A stretch of 64,000 nucleotides of DNA, taken from assembly GCF_988243305.1 (NCBI RefSeq), contig NZ_OZ547136.1; one strand, given 5' to 3'. The notes below the pieces were generated by a model that was given only the letters and a program-made list of their open reading frames with translations, searched no databases and was not told the DNA's origin. Made by a program: the position numbers and the translations under genes. Below, piece after piece: positions 27,514 through 40,055 of the stretch (its first letter is position 1; the number at the start of each line of letters is the position of its first letter).

Positions 27514-27623
27514 AACACTGGAGAATAAAATTTATCCGGTGAATGTGGTCGGAAAACAAAGAGGAAAGGGGGTGGGGCTAATCGGCAGGGAAGGCCGCCC
27601 CGGATAGCGGGCGGCAGAAGCAA

Positions 27624-28397
27624 TCAGAATTTCCAGGTCAGATGGGCTGCAAGTTGCAGACCGTTATAATCATCGGTTGGGGTGTCGTACCACACTTTAC
27701 CTGCCGTCAGCCCGAGATTAAGTTGCTCAGTCAGCGGTTGAATACGTTGCAAACTGACGCTCTTCATGCTGCCGTAGCGTGTTTCTGGCGTCCAGTCATA
27801 GGTGTAAGCACCTGTTCCGCGGCTTAGCCATAGTTGCGTATAACCAGTGCCGCGCGGGTCATTCAGACGCACGGAAATCATATTGCTGTAACTACCACCT
27901 GCATCGCTGGAGTCATAATGGGTATAGCGGTAGCTGGAGATCACCGGGCCAGTATAGAGTGATACGCCGCCTTGCCAGGCATCGACTTCGACATCATCGT
28001 AATATTTAGTGTAGCGATAACCGGTCGTGAAAAGCGTTTTTGGCAACAGTGCCAGGTTAATATCCTGACGAAAATCCTGGCGGGCAAAGACCGGCGTATT
28101 ATCCGCAAAGGCAATACCCGTTCGGGTTGTCAGCCAGTTATTCCATTTATACCAGACCGCACCCTGACCGCGAGTGGCATTGAAATGTTCAGTTTCATAA
28201 TCACGACGCCCCTGGGAAAGATTAAAAAGCAGCGTTGCGTTTTCAACTTTCGCCACCAGTTCAGCATACGCTAAATTACGGTTGCCATGATCGCCAGAAT
28301 AATCGGTAAAATCGTAGCCCGCGGTAATGGAAGTTAACCCGGCATAAGCGGGCAATGTGCTAAAAATTGCTGCCGCTAATAACGTCCGTTTTATCAT
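27624..28397 (-). CDS. yaiO: Outer membrane beta-barrel protein YaiO
   Basis: 257-aa ORF with signal peptide, ends in aromatic C-terminal residue. Confidence 0.9.
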   Translation of the reverse strand: MIKRTLLAAAIFSTLPAYAGLTSITAGYDFTDYSGDHGNRNLAYAELVAKVENATLLFNLSQGRRDYETEHFNATRGQGAVWYKWNNWLTTRTGIAFADNTPVFARQDFRQDINLALLPKTLFTTGYRYTKYYDDVEVDAWQGGVSLYTGPVISSYRYTHYDSSDAGGSYSNMISVRLNDPRGTGYTQLWLSRGTGAYTYDWTPETRYGSMKSVSLQRIQPLTEQLNLGLTAGKVWYDTPTDDYNGLQLAAHLTWKF

Positions 28398-28398
28398 T

Positions 28399-29109
28399 TT
28401 AATCTCCTGTACGGATAAGTTCTTGTCGGAGTGAATAAGTTCCGGGAGGTAAATTACGTTCTACAATCACGCGCGGGCCAAGTTGCGTGTTCGGGGAAAT
28501 AATTCGCCCAGGCAAAATAATAACTTGTACGCCAAGGCGTGAACGCTGCCCGATATAACAACCTAATTTATCGCATCCGGTAGCGATAATTCCCTCTGGA
28601 GTTCGAACAGACACGGGCTGTTGATCCAGACGATGATTACTGGTACGTACTTGTGCGCCCAAATATGCCTGGTTTGCAACTACCGAGTCGGCGATAAAGC
28701 ATTGCGGACCAATCGTTGCTTCCGCTTCAATAACCGCATTTTTAATTTCGGTGGCGAAACCAATTTTTACGCCATTGCTGATTATTGTGCCAGGACGAAT
28801 AAACGCATAATTACCTATCAGGCAGTTTGCGCCAATCACTACCGGACCCTGAATAACGGCACCGTGACAAATACGGGTATTCGCGCCGATAACAACTTCA
28901 CCTGCAGTTTCATCAATAATTACCTGGTCTGCAATCTGAATATTTTTCTCTTTAACATTAAGCTTCAGAAAGTTTTTCAGTTCCTGTGACAGAAGGTTGG
29001 GAATAAGAGGTTGACGCTTCCACCAGTGCGGAATAGCGGGTGGGTTTGTCGCGCTGAGGTTCGCGTCCAGTAAAAAAGGCAATAAGTCCATAAATAATCC
29101 AGATGGCAT
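28399..29109 (-). CDS. yaiX: Hexapeptide-repeat (LbH) acyltransferase, intact YaiX; start codon uncertain
   Basis: 236-aa ORF with repeated [LIV]GxxxxIG hexapeptide motifs; N-terminal ~150 nt overlap the 3' end of yaiP, so the true start may lie downstream. Confidence 0.7.
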   Translation of the reverse strand: MPSGLFMDLLPFLLDANLSATNPPAIPHWWKRQPLIPNLLSQELKNFLKLNVKEKNIQIADQVIIDETAGEVVIGANTRICHGAVIQGPVVIGANCLIGNYAFIRPGTIISNGVKIGFATEIKNAVIEAEATIGPQCFIADSVVANQAYLGAQVRTSNHRLDQQPVSVRTPEGIIATGCDKLGCYIGQRSRLGVQVIILPGRIISPNTQLGPRVIVERNLPPGTYSLRQELIRTGD

Positions 29110-30154
29110 AAGCTAATAATACATACACAACGGAAAGCGGTGCTAAAGGCACCAACAACCAGCAACGATGAAACCAGGCGCTAAAAGCACCAATAACACA
29201 AACTACGCCGACCCAGATAAGCGGAAACATTGCCAACACCACACCATACGGCCCGGTGGTGATGAATTCATTAAACCAGGTAGTGAGATAAATCCCAACG
29301 CCATAAAGCACAACCAACAGCATAGGAAATATACTGAAGATACCGAAGCGGCTAAATAAAAGCCTTTTATGCAGGCGCATACAGACCGCGTAGCCCACAA
29401 TCCAACGCCGCCAGCGACGCCATTCCTCACGCGGGCTGTTGCATTCCTGTGGGTATACGATGCAGCGATTCGCCTGCCGAATACGATAGCCGTTTGCCAC
29501 CAATGTCCAGGTGAGATCAAGGTCTTCGACTTTAGTACGATCAGAGAAACCGAACTTACGCAATACATCAGTACGGAACATCCCGCAGGCACCGCTGATA
29601 ATAAACGGTGCGCCGCCCAGGAGCTGCTGTAGCGTGCGCTTCATAACAATCATCGGCAACTTTACGGTCGCGCGGATGTGCGGTAACAGACCCGCGCCTT
29701 TCAACGCAGTAGAGGGAATGCCGCCTACGGCATCAGCACCGCGCTCTATTTCTGCAAGCATATAGCCCATTCCGTCTTGATCGGGCGGAACATAGGTGTC
29801 GGCATCACTTAAAAAAACCTGGTCGCAGGTGGCGTAATTGAGGCCATTCATCAGCGCACCACCTTTACCGGTATTTTTTTGCGTGACGGCAACAAAGCGG
29901 TCGCCCCATTTGCGTTTGACTTCCGCCATGACCGCTTCGGTATTGTCCGTGGAGCCGTCGTTTACGCAAATTACCCGGCAAAAATAAGGATTACGCAGCA
30001 GATTATCCAGTGACTGTGCCAGACACGGGCCTTCGTTATAAGCAGGTATAATGGCGTCAATACAGCCTTTCTTTTGACTGGGTTTACGTTTTAGCGTACT
30101 TAAAAACCATAGCAACATTGCTATGGACATACAGATAAATATCCAGGTTTTCAT
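28958..30154 (-). CDS. yaiP: Family 2 glycosyltransferase
   Basis: 398-aa ORF; GT-A fold motifs (DGSTD, DAD) and C-terminal transmembrane helices. Confidence 0.88.
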   Translation of the reverse strand: MKTWIFICMSIAMLLWFLSTLKRKPSQKKGCIDAIIPAYNEGPCLAQSLDNLLRNPYFCRVICVNDGSTDNTEAVMAEVKRKWGDRFVAVTQKNTGKGGALMNGLNYATCDQVFLSDADTYVPPDQDGMGYMLAEIERGADAVGGIPSTALKGAGLLPHIRATVKLPMIVMKRTLQQLLGGAPFIISGACGMFRTDVLRKFGFSDRTKVEDLDLTWTLVANGYRIRQANRCIVYPQECNSPREEWRRWRRWIVGYAVCMRLHKRLLFSRFGIFSIFPMLLVVLYGVGIYLTTWFNEFITTGPYGVVLAMFPLIWVGVVCVIGAFSAWFHRCWLLVPLAPLSVVYVLLAYAIWIIYGLIAFFTGREPQRDKPTRYSALVEASTSYSQPSVTGTEKLSEA

Positions 30155-30163
30155 GCAATTTGC

Positions 30164-30835
30164 TCAAAGAATCATTTTATGAATTACAAAGCCTTCACCC
30201 AGATCGCTATTGACCTGTTGCCCGCGAAATTGTGCAACTGCACGCAGGCGATCATGACGCATATAATCGCGTCGTTCCTGGCTTTTATGTTTTTTTAATG
30301 CAGCAAGTTTGACTGTGAAATATTCTTCTTTAACGGATTCAAAAACCTGAGGCATAAATGAAAGCCAGGTGCTTGGGGTTTCGTAGCCGAGAATTTGTGG
30401 AATAGTTCGGCAGGCAACCATTGAAGCTTGATAAACAGCAAGATGATCCTGATGGCGGTCGGCATCATGCATGGTATATACCCGCATGATTTCAACATCA
30501 GAAGGAATTTGATTTTTAATGATGTCTTCCAGGGCGGAAATCATATCATTGAGCTGCAAATGCGCGCGGGTGTCAGCAAAATTAAGATGAATAGTTTGGT
30601 GGCACCCTAATATCTTTAGGGCGTTGCGCGATTCTTCATGGCGATCGATTATTCCATCTGTGCCAGAGTTGCCGGTAGTCATCACCACGGCTGCGATATA
30701 AATTCCTTTTTGCGCAAGACGAGCAAGCGACGCGCCACAGCCCAATTCTATATCGTCAGGATGTGCGCCAATAGCAAGGATACCCTTTCTTTTATTTGCC
30801 GAAGAAAGGATGGCTGAATCTAAAACCTTATCCAC
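30164..30835 (-). CDS. yaiS: PIG-L/LmbE-family deacetylase
   Basis: 223-aa ORF with AHPDDxE motif near the N-terminus. Confidence 0.8.
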   Translation of the reverse strand: MDKVLDSAILSSANKRKGILAIGAHPDDIELGCGASLARLAQKGIYIAAVVMTTGNSGTDGIIDRHEESRNALKILGCHQTIHLNFADTRAHLQLNDMISALEDIIKNQIPSDVEIMRVYTMHDADRHQDHLAVYQASMVACRTIPQILGYETPSTWLSFMPQVFESVKEEYFTVKLAALKKHKSQERRDYMRHDRLRAVAQFRGQQVNSDLGEGFVIHKMIL

Positions 30836-31443
30836 TTAATGACACTCCATTTTATTTATTATACTACAAGCACAACGATGCCCGCAGAGACGTAATCTCT
30901 GGCACAGACAGATGCTAATTTTTAAGTGTTAAAAATTACTGATAGCTGAAAAATAAGGGGCTTTCAGGTACGGGGATACGACTGCGTAATCTTTTATGTA
31001 GTTCATATGTTAAGTGTTTGTGTGTTTGGTTTGTATAGTTATTTTGTTTTATATATTGTATTTAGATGTGATTTAGTTTGTCAATTAATTACATATTAAA
31101 AATATGTTCTAGGCACAAATATGGATTATATACATTATGTGAATGTATTATGTGGTTGATTGAGAATGATACAGTTATATATGCAATGTGAATATAATGA
31201 TTTCATTATATGTATTGCTGTTAATAAAATAAAAGACATTATGTTCTGCTTGTTTATGCATTAATAAAAATGAAGTGCAGTAACTTACTGAATTGTCAGA
31301 GTGGGTGTAATTGCATATTTAATCTTTCCTTTGCCGCTTTTTTGCTAAGAATAAAATCATCTGTGCGATAACGACTAATTCTTTTAATGAATGTTTTTAT
31401 TCCTGAATACTGCTCCTATAACAAGACAGGGGAGCAGACAATC

Positions 31444-32406
31444 ATGGCAATTTCATCGCGTAACACACTTCTTGCCGCACTGGCATTCATCGCTTTTCAG
31501 GCACAGGCGGTGAACGTCACCGTGGCCTATCAAACCTCCGCTGAACCGGCGAAAGTGGCTCAGGCTGATAACACCTTTGCTAAAGAGAGCGGGGCGACGG
31601 TGGACTGGCGCAAGTTTGACAGCGGAGCCAGCATCGTGCGGGCGCTGGCTTCAGGCGATGTCCAAATCGGTAACCTCGGTTCCAGCCCATTAGCGGTGGC
31701 AGCCAACCAACAGGTGCCGATTGAAGTCTTCTTACTGGCGTCAAAACTGGGTAACTCCGAAGCGCTGGTGGTAAAGAAAACTATCAGCAAACCGGAAGAT
31801 CTCATTGGCAAACGCATCGCCGTACCGTTTATCTCCACCACCCACTACAGCCTGCTGGCGGCGCTGAAACACTGGGGTATAAAACCCGGACAAGTGGAGA
31901 TAGTGAACCTGCAGCCACCCGCGATTATCGCCGCATGGCAACGGGGAGACATTGATGGTGCTTATGTCTGGGCACCGGCGGTTAACGCCCTGGAAAAAGA
32001 CGGCAAGGTGTTGACCGATTCTGAACAGGTCGGGCAGTGGGGCGCGCCAACGCTGGACGTCTGGGTGGTGCGCAAAGATTTTGCCGAGAAACATCCTGAG
32101 GTCGTGAAAGCGTTCGCTAAAAGCGCCATCGATGCTCAACAACCGTACATTGCTAATCCAGACGCGTGGCTGAAACAGCCGGAAAACATCAGCAAACTGG
32201 CACGTTTAAGCGGCGTACCTGAAGGTGACGTTCCGGGGCTGGTGAAGGGGAATACCTATCTGACGCCGCAGCAGCAAACGGCAGAACTGACCGGACCGGT
32301 GAACAAAGCGATCATCGACACCGCGCAGTTTTTGAAAGAGCAGGGCAAAGTCCCGGCTGTAGCGAATGATTACAGCCAGTACGTGACCTCGCGCTTCGTG
32401 CAATAA
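31444..32406 (+). CDS. tauA: Taurine ABC transporter periplasmic binding protein
   Basis: ORF track 31387..32406; conserved start MAISSRNTLLAALAFIAFQAQA (signal peptide) gives 320 aa. Confidence 0.92.
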   Translation: MAISSRNTLLAALAFIAFQAQAVNVTVAYQTSAEPAKVAQADNTFAKESGATVDWRKFDSGASIVRALASGDVQIGNLGSSPLAVAANQQVPIEVFLLASKLGNSEALVVKKTISKPEDLIGKRIAVPFISTTHYSLLAALKHWGIKPGQVEIVNLQPPAIIAAWQRGDIDGAYVWAPAVNALEKDGKVLTDSEQVGQWGAPTLDVWVVRKDFAEKHPEVVKAFAKSAIDAQQPYIANPDAWLKQPENISKLARLSGVPEGDVPGLVKGNTYLTPQQQTAELTGPVNKAIIDTAQFLKEQGKVPAVANDYSQYVTSRFVQ

Positions 32407-32418
32407 AAGGAGGCGCAG

Positions 32419-33186
32419 ATGCTGCAAATCTCTCATCTTTACGCCGATTATGGCGGCAAACCGGCACTGGAAGATATCAACCTGACGCTGGAAAGCTGTG
32501 AGCTACTGGTGGTGCTGGGGCCGTCCGGCTGCGGTAAAACCACCCTGCTGAATCTGATTGCCGGTTTTGTGCCTTATCAGCATGGCAGCATTCAACTGGC
32601 GGGTAAGTGCATTGAGGGACCGGGCGCAGAGCGGGGCGTGGTTTTTCAGAATGAAGGGCTGCTACCGTGGCGCAATGTACGGGACAACGTGGCGTTCGGC
32701 CTGCAACTGGCAGGTGTTGAGAAAATGCAGCGACTGGAAATCGCGCACCAGATGCTGAAAAAAGTGGGGCTGGAAGGGGCAGAAAAACGCTACATCTGGC
32801 AGCTTTCCGGCGGTCAACGTCAGCGGGTGGGGATTGCCCGCGCGCTGGCGGCAAATCCCCAGCTGTTATTACTCGATGAACCGTTTGGTGCGCTGGACGC
32901 CTTCACCCGCGACCAGATGCAAACCCTGCTGCTGAAACTCTGGCAGGAGACGGGCAAGCAGGTGCTGTTGATTACCCACGATATAGAAGAAGCGGTGTTT
33001 ATGGCGACTGAACTGGTTTTGCTTTCACCCGGCCCTGGCCGCGTGCTGGAGCGGCTGCCGCTCAACTTTGCTCGCCGCTTTGTTGCGGGAGAGTCGAGCC
33101 GCAGCATCAAGTCCGATCCACGATTCATCGCCATGCGCGAATATGTTTTAAGCCGCGTATTTGAGCAACGGGAGGCGTTCTCATGA
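32419..33186 (+). CDS. tauB: Taurine ABC transporter ATP-binding protein
   Basis: 255-aa ORF; Walker [10 protein letters not shown] and ABC signature LSGGQRQR. Confidence 0.95.
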
Positions 33187-34010
33187 GTGTGCTCATTAAT
33201 GAAAAACTGCATTCGCATCGGCTGAAATGGCGCTGGCCGCTCTCGCGTCAGGTGACCTTAAGCATTGGCACGTTAGCGGTTTTACTCACTGTATGGTGGG
33301 CAGTGGCGGCGCTGCAACTGATTAGCCCGCTGTTTTTGCCGCCGCCGCAACAGGTACTGGCAAAACTGCTCACCATTGCCGGACCGCAGGGATTTATGGA
33401 CGCCACCCTGTGGCAGCATCTGGCAGCCAGCCTGACGCGCATTGTGCTGGCGCTACTTGCGGCGGTGTTGATCGGCATTCCGGTCGGGATCGCCATGGGA
33501 CTAAGCCCGACGGTGCGCGGCATTCTGGATCCGGTAATCGAGCTTTATCGTCCGGTGCCGCCGCTGGCGTATTTGCCGCTGATGGTGATCTGGTTTGGTA
33601 TTGGTGAAACCTCGAAGATCTTACTGATCTATTTAGCGATTTTTGCACCGGTGGCGATGTCGGCGCTGGCGGGGGTGAAAAGCGCGCAGCAGGTTCGCAT
33701 TCGTGCCGCCCAGTCGCTGGGTGCCAGTCGTGCGCAGGTGCTGTGGTTTGTCATTTTGCCCGGCGCGCTGCCGGAAATCCTCACCGGATTACGCATTGGT
33801 CTGGGTGTGGGCTGGTCTACGCTGGTAGCGGCGGAGCTGATTGCCGCGACGCGCGGTTTAGGATTTATGGTTCAGTCAGCGGGTGAATTTCTCGCGACTG
33901 ACGTGGTGCTGGCGGGGATCGCGGTGATTGCGATTATCGCTTTTCTTTTAGAACTGGGTTTGCGCGCGTTACAGCGCCGCCTGACGCCCTGGCATGGAGA
34001 AGTACAATGA
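33183..34010 (+). CDS. tauC: Taurine ABC transporter permease
   Basis: 275-aa membrane ORF. Confidence 0.95.
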
Positions 34011-34858
34011 GTGAACGTCTGAGCATTACCCCGCTGGGGCCGTATATTGGCGCACAAATTTCGGGTGCCGACCTGACGCGCCCGTTAAGCGATAATCAGT
34101 TTGAACAGCTTTACCATGCGGTGCTGCGCCATCAGGTGGTGTTTCTGCGCGAACAAGCTATTATGCCGCAGCAGCAACGCGCGCTGGCCCAGCGTTTTGG
34201 CGAACTGCATATTCACCCTGTTTACCCTCATGCCGAAGGGGTTGACGAGATCATCGTGCTGGATACTCATAACGATAATCCGCCGGATAACGACAACTGG
34301 CATACCGATGTGACATTTATTGAAACGCCACCCGCAGGGGCGATTCTGGCGGCAAAAGAGTTACCCTCGACCGGCGGCGATACGCTCTGGACCAGCGGTA
34401 TTGCGGCCTATGAGGCGCTCTCTGTTCCCTTCCGCCAGCTGCTGAGCGGGCTGCGTGCGGAGCATGATTTCCGTAAATCGTTCCCGGAATACAAATACCG
34501 CAAAACCGAGGAGGAGCATCAACGCTGGCGCGAGGCGGTCGCGAAAAATCCGCCGTTGCTACATCCGGTGGTGCGAACGCATCCGGTGAGCGGTAAACAG
34601 GCGCTGTTTGTGAATGAAGGCTTTACCACGCGAATTGTTGATGTCAGCGAGAAAGAGAGCGAAGCCTTGCTGGGCTTTTTATTTGCCCACATCACCAAAC
34701 CGGAGTTTCAGGTGCGCTGGCGCTGGCAACCAAATGATATTGCGATTTGGGATAACCGCGTAACCCAGCACTATGCCAATGCGGATTACCTGCCACAGCG
34801 GCGGATTATGCATCGGGCGACGATCCTTGGGGATAAACCGTTTTATCGGGCGGGGTAA
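34007..34858 (+). CDS. tauD: Taurine dioxygenase (alpha-ketoglutarate-dependent)
   Basis: 283-aa ORF matching TauD. Confidence 0.95.
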
Positions 34859-35872: not shown

Positions 35873-36397
35873 GGTCTGCCTGATGTTTGTGGAATCGAGG
35901 GGCATAGTATACCTGAAGCAGGGTGGGGATGTTTTACGAAAGTTGTCGCGATGTTGACAAGAAGAGAATGGAAGAGAGGCCAGGACATCTTTGTAATAGA
36001 AATAGCAATAATTTTATATTCACTGAAAATATTTTTAATTTTTATTTATATCCATAGATTATTGTTTTTGGGGATTTGGTGACATTTTCAAAAAGTGAAT
36101 AACTTAAAGTTCATTGCTTATTGATACATTATTTGTCTGTTTTGGTTGTTTTATATTTTCATGGTCTATGTTTTAAAATTAACGCTTTCATTAACGTATT
36201 GAAATATTGTGTTTTTGTTATTTCTTTCTGTGTGTGTGTTCACGTGCTTTATATATGTCCGCAATCGGACTTAGGGGAAAGAATAATTGAACCATTCCTC
36301 TATAACGCCGCATAATCGTCAACGCGAAACATAATATGTTTTCTATGCATTGATAATTGATGGATCAACTTATTACGTCCCTGAGGAGGGATGACAA

Positions 36398-39358
<2,961 letters not shown>

Positions 39359-39372
39359 TGAAGAAATAGGTT

Positions 39373-40055
<683 letters not shown>

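Follow-up and report, generated by a model that had tools for sequence, protein, structure and literature searches.

The AT-rich yaiS–tauA spacer of Escherichia coli as a probable composite of the tauA promoter and an H-NS-silenced upstream region of an accessory gene cassette

A probable composite control region between yaiS and tauA

The 608-bp AT-rich spacer that separates the divergent genes yaiS and tauA is, in all probability, a composite divergent control region, in which the tauA promoter is joined to the H-NS-silenced upstream region of an accessory yaiS gene cassette. The right-hand ~115–140 bp (31307..31443) would be the σ70 promoter of tauABCD, activated by the LysR-type regulators Cbl and CysB under sulfate starvation, and the remaining ~470 bp (30836..31306) would represent AT-rich, foreign-type DNA upstream of the yaiS-yaiP-acetyltransferase-yaiO cassette. 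H-NS is expected to coat an AT-rich ~300–450 bp of the spacer, as indicated by ChIP in K-12 and presumed for the allele described here. This coating would damp the yaiS σ70 promoter TTGACA-18-TACAAT and would also hold promoter-like hexamers that arose by chance unproductive, and the promoter-island character of the region would be a by-product of its base composition.

The spacer as such is already known: its K-12 counterpart is documented as an H-NS-bound promoter island combined with an activator-dependent tauA promoter. The finding matters little beyond housekeeping and is useful mainly to those who work on the yaiS–tauA locus, for whom the useful points are the conservation of the yaiS promoter, the location of an accessory boundary inside the tauA promoter, and the recognition that the island property is a matter of composition. 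All coordinates refer to the window, that is, the whole 64-kb stretch of DNA that was analysed.

Limits and composition of the spacer

The 901 bases around the spacer are 100% identical to many E. coli strains and represent chromosomal DNA. The preliminary description had placed an AT-rich spacer of about 600 bp between divergent yaiS and tauA, and its limits proved to be exact: the GTG end of yaiS lies at 30835 and the ATG of tauA at 31444, which leaves a gap of exactly 608 bp (Table 1). The same description had called this the longest non-coding stretch, which is borne out for ORFs of at least 60 aa within the 64 kb and also for intergenic regions in a near-identical annotated genome, ~49 kb of which was checked and where the next longest region, between ehaB and hemB, measures 525 bp. 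The ORF-free run itself is shorter, at 551 bp, since the tauA ORF reaches back to an in-frame ATG further upstream.

The strong AT-richness is equally evident, with 30.1% GC in the spacer versus 52.0% in the window. Only 0.08% of all 608-bp windows have a lower GC content, all of them overlapping the spacer, and the spacer core (31000..31199) has 23.5% GC. TpA steps number 11.8 per 100 bp in the spacer versus 4.3 in the window; in both GC content and TpA frequency, the spacer has the composition of xenogeneic DNA. The many short A/T tracts that had been noticed are also present, 15 tracts of at least four bases being counted.

As a whole, the earlier observation holds in part, for the direct repeats of TGT/TAT-rich units that it listed are no better than those in composition-matched shuffles. 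Tandem Repeats Finder returned an empty result on the spacer. The top 22-nt direct pair (17/22, at 31126 and 31175) was equalled in 57 of 200 dinucleotide shuffles, and the longest exact repeat, of 9 nt, in 177 of 200. The TGT/TAT appearance is due to strand-biased composition, T and G being abundant on the top strand (in 30900..31200, T 122, G 62, A 95, C 22).

Conservation between alleles and species

The K-12 spacer (NC_000913.3 384617..385231), inside which no feature is annotated, aligns with the window allele end to end at 86.4% identity, and the 14% of positions that differ include some in the H-NS-sensitive sequence that immediately precedes the -35 element. Spacers of E. coli fall into two deep haplogroups, one K-12-like and the other containing the window, NC101 and Nissle-like alleles; the two haplogroups are 85–86% identical to each other, with almost no intermediates. 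The window is a mosaic in this respect, its yaiP–yaiS part being K-12-like and its spacer belonging to the other haplogroup. In E. fergusonii (one genome), yaiS likewise adjoins tauA, across a spacer of 676 bp with 28.8% GC. The inference that yaiS is narrowly distributed was withdrawn, since E. fergusonii has this gene beside tauA.

Identities counted against K-12, together with an alignment of nine alleles, distinguish conserved blocks from two hypervariable patches (Table 1). No element was recognised in hypervariable patch 2. The conserved intervals 31000..31050 and 31126..31216 are left over by the composite-region account.

Table 1. Features of the yaiS–tauA spacer and its surroundings, in window coordinates
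Feature	Position	Strand	Description
Accessory segment	27540..31405	.	yaiO, acetyltransferase, yaiP, yaiS and AT-rich DNA as far as the tauA -10 region
yaiS	30164..30835	-	PIG-L family deacetylase, 223 aa, GTG start; Pfam PF02585, E=4e-25
yaiS–tauA divergent spacer	30836..31443	both (.)	608 bp, 30.1% GC
yaiS translation-initiation (ribosome-binding) region	30836..30878	-	GGAG 9 nt before GTG; block 43/43 identical to K-12
Hypervariable patch 1	30879..30999		96/122 vs K-12; 44% vs E. fergusonii
Counterpart of promoter island 383994_309	30989..31289	.	Approximate; U00096.2 coordinates, transferred by a presumed offset, consistent with P12 falling inside the island
Block 31000..31110	31000..31110		104/111 vs K-12; yaiS promoter plus ~50 nt at the start of its transcript
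P12 counterpart	31045..31194	.	132/150 identical to K-12
yaiS σ70 promoter	31055..31084	-	-35 TTGACA 31084..31079, 18-nt spacer, -10 TACAAT 31060..31055; scan 11/12
Block 31111..31216	31111..31216		89/106 vs K-12; no element assigned
Promoter-like pair TTGAGA-16-TGCAAT (TACAAT in K-12)	31160..31187	+	Put forward from SELEX as a "constitutive tauA promoter"; P12 strand inactive
Hypervariable patch 2	31217..31306		63/99 vs K-12, with a 9-bp indel; 39% vs E. fergusonii
tauA regulatory block	31307..31443	+	Right-hand ~115–140 bp of the spacer; 134/137 vs K-12
CCTTTGCCGCTTTTTTGCTAAGAA	31328..31351	+	Conserved; candidate Cbl half-site region
TAATTCTTTTAATG	31376..31389	+	Conserved; overlaps the weak -35
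Weak tauA -35 TTTAAT	31383..31388	+	Putative; 17-nt spacer to the -10
Candidate tauA -10 AATACT	31406..31411	+	Putative
Alternative tauA -10 TATAAC	31417..31422	+	Putative
tauA Shine-Dalgarno GGGGAG	31430..31435	+	ATG 8 nt downstream

Published evidence on the K-12 counterpart

Four published studies deal with the K-12 counterpart of the spacer. The region yaiS(-)/tauA(+) is promoter island 383994_309, one of 78 published islands; it carries the H-NS code 'A', meaning that it was bound in all ChIP-chip studies compiled, and is linked to predicted foreign genes (Panyukov & Ozoline 2013, PMC3661553). SELEX with the σ70 holoenzyme yielded a peak at yaiS–tauA, flagged HNS, for which the promoters TTGACA-18-TACAAT (yaiS) and TTGAGA-16-TACAAT (tauA) were named (Shimada 2014, PMC3946193), and the RpoS (σ38) holoenzyme gave a SELEX peak at the same K-12 locus (Shimada 2017).

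A reporter study used the 150-bp densest part of each of 25 promoter islands as templates (Fuqua & Wagner 2024, PMC11661796), among which template P12 corresponds, by sequence match, to the yaiS–tauA locus (K-12 NC_000913.3 384826..384975). In the orientation toward yaiS (P12-RFP), the template shows promoter activity in the reporter, and the promoter was mapped by mutagenesis and scrambling: its signal falls 62.6-fold when the -35 element is scrambled and 49.7-fold when the -10 element is, and conversion of TACAAT to TATAAT raises it (PMC11661796). P12-RFP activity also rises in a Δhns host (~0.5-fold, the paper's figure; p=4e-10), and the destruction of either of two causal H-NS motifs in P12-RFP raises expression, whereas the strand directed toward tauA (P12-GFP) is a non-promoter (PMC11661796). 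On a plasmid, the published H-NS repression of the mapped promoter is modest, at ~0.5-fold.

The yaiS promoter and leader

The promoter mapped in this way, TTGACA-18-TACAAT, is identical to that of K-12 at 30 of 30 positions in the window. Transcription of yaiS probably starts near 31048, which would give a leader of ~213 nt. The promoter core (31051..31090) is identical in E. fergusonii at 36 of 40 positions, between flanks of 30–47% identity, and, judged from these alignments, no other element of the spacer is conserved as well across species as the mapped yaiS promoter. That conservation is best here both among the alleles and in E. fergusonii supports a real yaiS promoter rather than a plasmid artefact.

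A perfect TATAAT that occurs on the minus strand near the yaiS start (30863..30858) is not retained in E. fergusonii. Hypervariable patch 1 would fall inside the yaiS leader, and a conserved small inverted repeat in this patch, CAGAGAcgtaaTCTCTG at 30885..30901, forms a hairpin in the predicted fold. A σ54-dependent yaiS promoter is listed in RegulonDB, as cited in PMC3118216; within the spacer, the σ54 element TGGCAC-N5-TTGCW had no minus-strand match at three or fewer mismatches, and the nearest σ54-like site (one mismatch) lies at 30737..30722, within the yaiS ORF.

The first ~93 nt of the predicted yaiS leader are C-rich and G-poor, with a C/G ratio of 3.0–3.3 versus a 99th percentile of 2.2 in the window, and are mostly unpaired in the fold, like Rho-loading sites. 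This bias is not specific to the transcript, because the same strand bias continues upstream of the yaiS promoter.

The tauA regulatory block

That the spacer holds the sulfate-starvation promoter of tauA, as the preliminary description had maintained, is supported by conservation: the block 31307..31443 is identical between the deep haplogroups at 134 of 137 positions, and its core motifs are kept into Citrobacter and Enterobacter. The elements TTTTTTnCTAAnAA, TAATTCnTTTA, AATACTGC, and ATAACAA are invariant in eight sequences that include these two genera. Transcription of tauA probably starts near 31418, which places the beginning of the block, at 31307, ~112 bp before the start. Work by van der Ploeg and colleagues in 1997 is said to have found that Cbl protects positions -112 to -68 at the tauA promoter. 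The position at which the conserved block begins and the invariance of TTTTTTnCTAAnAA are consistent with this reported footprint. According to RegulonDB-derived text, tauABCD is activated by Cbl and is also regulated by CysB. A Cbl motif common to the upstream regions of tauA and ssuE was rejected, the resemblance in a by-eye comparison being too weak.

An accessory segment with a boundary inside the tauA promoter

The gene yaiS is the first of the four-gene yaiS-yaiP-acetyltransferase-yaiO cassette. In JJ1887, frmR lies 305 bp from tauA; by blastn junctions, 164 unrelated bp replace 27540..31405 in this genome, and identity resumes at AATACTGCTCC. The spacer is present in ~4,240 (~78%) of the 5,426 complete genomes of E. 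coli, and the direct frmR–tauA junction in 594 of the 5,426. The remaining E. coli genomes contain another gene set (a response regulator, a MASE1 kinase and a UhpC-like transporter) or IS1-mediated deletions.

The gene set with the response regulator, MASE1 kinase and UhpC-like transporter also flanks tauA in Citrobacter and Enterobacter, where the cassette is not found in the tauA neighbourhood. Upstream of tauA, Citrobacter, Enterobacter and O145-type E. coli have spacers of 241–341 bp with 44–47% GC, and therefore the length and the AT-richness belong to the yaiS side. In Citrobacter sp. FP75, the cassette occupies another locus, behind its own 412-bp region of 35% GC, which has no homology to the spacer beyond the yaiS start codon region. 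The presence or absence of the segment among strains and the location of the cassette elsewhere in FP75 agree with the horizontally acquired neighbours that are characteristic of promoter islands.

Upstream of the -10 element, the tauA sequence of cassette-bearing strains (type A) and the alternative sequence (type B) are identical at 42 of 85 positions, versus 24.7±4.1 in shuffles. The likeness is concentrated in two motif blocks, and type B matches the other genera. The accessory boundary falls within the tauA promoter, and as a result the Cbl-dependent control region exists among E. coli strains in two deeply diverged versions.

A mobile-element origin of the spacer was considered and rejected, there being no phage match and a single copy of the spacer per genome. 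The only 'plasmid' matches to the spacer were E. coli records of 1.2–4.9 Mb, apparently chromosomes filed as plasmids, and were likewise set aside.

H-NS and the promoter-island character

By definition, predicted transcription start points are exceptionally dense in a promoter island, over a length of 300 bp or more. The spacer has such a density, with 13 σ70-like pairs in 608 bp, the median for 608-bp tiles of the window being 2, as counted in a simple hexamer scan and not by the PlatProm score. These 13 promoter-like sites are fewer than those in dinucleotide shuffles (20.6±5.3), and therefore the 'island' is not a selected property. Base composition suffices to explain the promoter-island character in full.

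The preliminary description had suggested that the size and composition of the spacer might reflect nucleoid-protein binding, curved DNA or an unannotated small RNA. Nucleoid-protein binding stands for the K-12 counterpart, given the published H-NS ChIP, SELEX and reporter data, and H-NS is presumed to bind the window allele equally. The earlier interpretation is thus partly supported: the tauA promoter and nucleoid-protein binding are retained, and the small RNA and curvature are not. The spacer shows no enrichment of the high-affinity H-NS motif TCGATAAATT, with one match at two mismatches or fewer versus 1.7 in shuffles. A TCGATAAATT-like motif is not needed for H-NS binding to AT-rich DNA.

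A further-reaching joint reading, in which H-NS gates taurine induction in type-A strains and the yaiS leader contains a Rho-loading site, appears unlikely. It would require that the arrival of the cassette replaced all DNA upstream of the tauA -10 element by the type A promoter adjoining an H-NS domain. If this were true, ~78% of E. coli and the single E. fergusonii genome analysed would have an H-NS-gated tauA, at which Cbl would serve in part as a counter-silencer; the ancestral type-B promoter would work without the H-NS layer; and the Rho-loading site would prevent expression of an uncharacterised polysaccharide-type cassette.

Alternative explanations

The AT-rich DNA could, although we consider this improbable, be functionless, decaying filler apart from two ordinary promoters, with H-NS and RNA polymerase binding by composition only. 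Composition explains, and even over-explains, the promoter-like density; the two hypervariable patches are 64–79% identical between the E. coli haplogroups versus 97–100% for the flanking genes; and the segment is absent in ~22% of genomes, contains IS1 insertions and deletions, and carries cassette genes that are often broken. The non-homologous AT-rich region upstream of the Citrobacter cassette points the same way. However, conservation across species is highest in the yaiS promoter core (36 of 40 positions), and the blocks 31000..31110 (104/111) and 31126..31216 have diverged clearly less than the patches beside them. The main difference between this account and the composite control region is the denial of a selected role for silencing.

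An unannotated small RNA in the spacer, as had been suggested, or any other independent transcript from it, is very improbable. The spacer is long and has several promoter-like sites on both strands, including, just beyond the tested P12 fragment, a top-strand hexamer (31193..31198) that is a perfect TATAAT, and whole-spacer folds are slightly stabler than those of shuffles. However, the z-scores of these folds (-1.75 for the plus strand and -1.93 for the minus strand) are not significant, nor is the fold of the leader (z -1.2). The sole Rfam match at E<=10 is to a mammalian lncRNA model, at 6.9 bits, and no terminator-like site was found in the spacer. Nothing is annotated in the K-12 spacer, a literature search at the yaiS–tauA locus turned up no sRNA, promoter islands give almost no long RNAs in 5'-end RNA-seq according to the promoter-island literature, and the P12 top strand is inactive (PMC11661796).

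A 30-aa hydrophobic protein, MLSVCVFGLYSYFVLYIVFRCDLVCQLITY, encoded on the plus strand at 31007..31099, might be invoked to explain the conserved block 31000..31110, with which its ORF coincides, and the replacements among alleles are chemically conservative. Nevertheless, we give this protein hardly any credence: no Shine-Dalgarno sequence precedes the ATG at 31007, the alleles differ by seven non-synonymous versus one synonymous change, the stop codon shifts in K-12, and F, L, I, V and Y codons are the default of T-rich DNA. The ORF is unannotated in K-12, although small-protein surveys added ykiC nearby, and the mapped minus-strand yaiS promoter accounts for the same block.

Least credible, together with that protein, is an intrinsically curved element acting by shape: the 15 A/T tracts and the unusual modelled DNA geometry reported for promoter islands (PMC3661553) speak for it, but the curvature prediction that had been called for was unremarkable by both A-tract phasing and a wedge model, AA/TT power at 10–11 bp being equal to the shuffle mean (reached by 36–57% of shuffles) and the end-to-end/contour ratio being 0.93–0.97 in the spacer, while the window has its median at 0.96 and its 5th percentile at 0.89, in a model whose wedge parameters are approximate. 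A 14-bp periodicity peak of the window allele was dismissed as chance, being absent from the K-12 allele.

Comparison with known systems

The composite control region resembles several known systems, each of which it matches in part. Among promoter islands (Shavkunov et al. 2009; PMC3661553), which are AT-rich, promoter-dense, and occupied by H-NS and RNA polymerase, the K-12 counterpart has its own entry; the window allele differs from it, with identities of 86% over the whole spacer and 88% in the core. Promoter islands are generally described as transcriptionally defective, whereas the K-12 core has one promoter with strong activity in a plasmid context. The little productive transcription expected of an island is thus only partly borne out in the literature, the top strand of P12 being inactive and the bottom strand active.

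The silencing of horizontally acquired AT-rich DNA by H-NS, known as xenogeneic silencing, is an established concept. As in that system, low-GC, TpA-rich DNA precedes a cassette that is variable among strains and species, and both occupancy and H-NS-dependent repression have been published for the K-12 locus. In contrast to typical H-NS silencing, repression on the plasmid is mild and no nucleation consensus is enriched. We know of no counter-silencer for yaiS.

The Cbl- and CysB-activated promoters of tauA and ssuE are reportedly induced by sulfate starvation, as van der Ploeg and colleagues are said to have described in 1997 and 1999. The right end of the spacer corresponds to the tauA promoter characterised in K-12, with 98% identity. 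Unlike a simple promoter of this class, it occupies only about a fifth of the spacer, and E. coli has two versions of it upstream of the -10 element, of which type A travels with the yaiS cassette.

Finally, the switching of intergenic regions in E. coli, or 'horizontal regulatory transfer', was reportedly described by Oren and colleagues in PNAS in 2014. The yaiS–tauA locus is similar in that a core operon, tauABCD, has alternative, barely alignable upstream DNA in different strains. It differs from regulatory switching in that the change is part of the replacement of a 3.9-kb gene cassette, and the activator-site motifs are kept in both versions.

Two versions of the tauA control region

Among E. 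coli strains, two deeply diverged versions of the control region, denoted types A and B, precede the tauA -10 element. Type A, which E. fergusonii also has, goes together with the yaiS cassette, and type B is common to E. coli, Citrobacter, and Enterobacter. Only putative activator-site motifs and -35 motifs are retained in both versions.

The genes flanking tauA in Citrobacter, Enterobacter, and some E. coli (O145) are a divergent one for a GerE-type response regulator, one for a MASE1 histidine kinase, and one for a UhpC-like transporter. Probably, these genes represent the ancestral surroundings of tauA and were displaced by the yaiS cassette.

Features of the yaiS-tauA region and its surroundings (L numbers denote comparison loci from other genomes)
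Feature	Window	Comparison loci	Strand	Remarks
tauA control region, diverged part	31306..31405	L005 4837..5000; L004; L096–L098		
Other gene set upstream of tauA		L004 150..4736; L096–L098		
Cassette yaiS/yaiP/acetyltransferase/yaiO	~27600..30835	L007 6001..9212	minus (window)	four genes
Mosaic segment	~27540..34400			compared with K-12 and NC101
σ54-like element TGGCGCGTCGCTTGCT	30722..30737		minus	within yaiS; 1 mismatch to TGGCAC-N5-TTGCW
ykiC	30179..30298		plus	small ORF, 39 aa; opposite yaiS 3' end
ehaB–hemB spacer	~35906..36430			second long AT-rich spacer

Mosaic ancestry and variation of the spacer

The window strain is a mosaic: its yaiP–yaiS is 97–100% identical to K-12, and its yaiS–tauA spacer belongs to the deep haplogroup other than that of K-12 (94% identity to NC101 and 86% to K-12). 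Recombination is thus implied, with a breakpoint close to the start of yaiS.

In several unrelated strains, the spacer either contains an IS1 insertion or has been partly deleted by IS1 (locus L003; search matches H55, H96, and H127). Strain C and H1827/12 retain only the final ~110 bp before tauA, and CRE1493 and MDK6L1 carry insertions in the spacer. IS1 is known to prefer AT-rich DNA, and the IS1 events observed here fit this preference.

In the ehaB–hemB spacer (525 bp in the annotated relative; GC content 0.34), promoter-like sites reach 15 in a 608-bp tile, more than in any other tile of the window. Another stretch dense in promoter-like sites, of reduced GC content, lies near 39200..39800.

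Elements within yaiS

Within yaiS, the σ54-like element follows the start codon by ~100 nt; K-12 retains it, as TGGCGCATCGCTTGCT, and in NC101 it is weakened. This element may correspond to the σ54 yaiS promoter in RegulonDB and, if used, would be an intragenic promoter. The ykiC ORF, a validated small protein in K-12, differs in the window by a single substitution, S15P.

The yaiS cassette

The YaiS search of genome contigs yielded mostly distant PIG-L proteins among the matches listed (at least 600), which missed E. coli and E. fergusonii; therefore, this search is unusable as an argument for a narrow distribution of yaiS, and that argument was dropped. In Citrobacter sp. FP75, the cassette is present at a different locus. 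In E. coli, it is frequently disrupted: in K-12, yaiX is interrupted by IS2 and yaiS is truncated, and in strain 2012C-4221, yaiP is frameshifted. The cassette encodes a PIG-L deacetylase (yaiS), a family-2 glycosyltransferase (yaiP), an acetyltransferase, and an outer-membrane β-barrel protein (yaiO), and resembles a module for polysaccharide synthesis, modification, and export.
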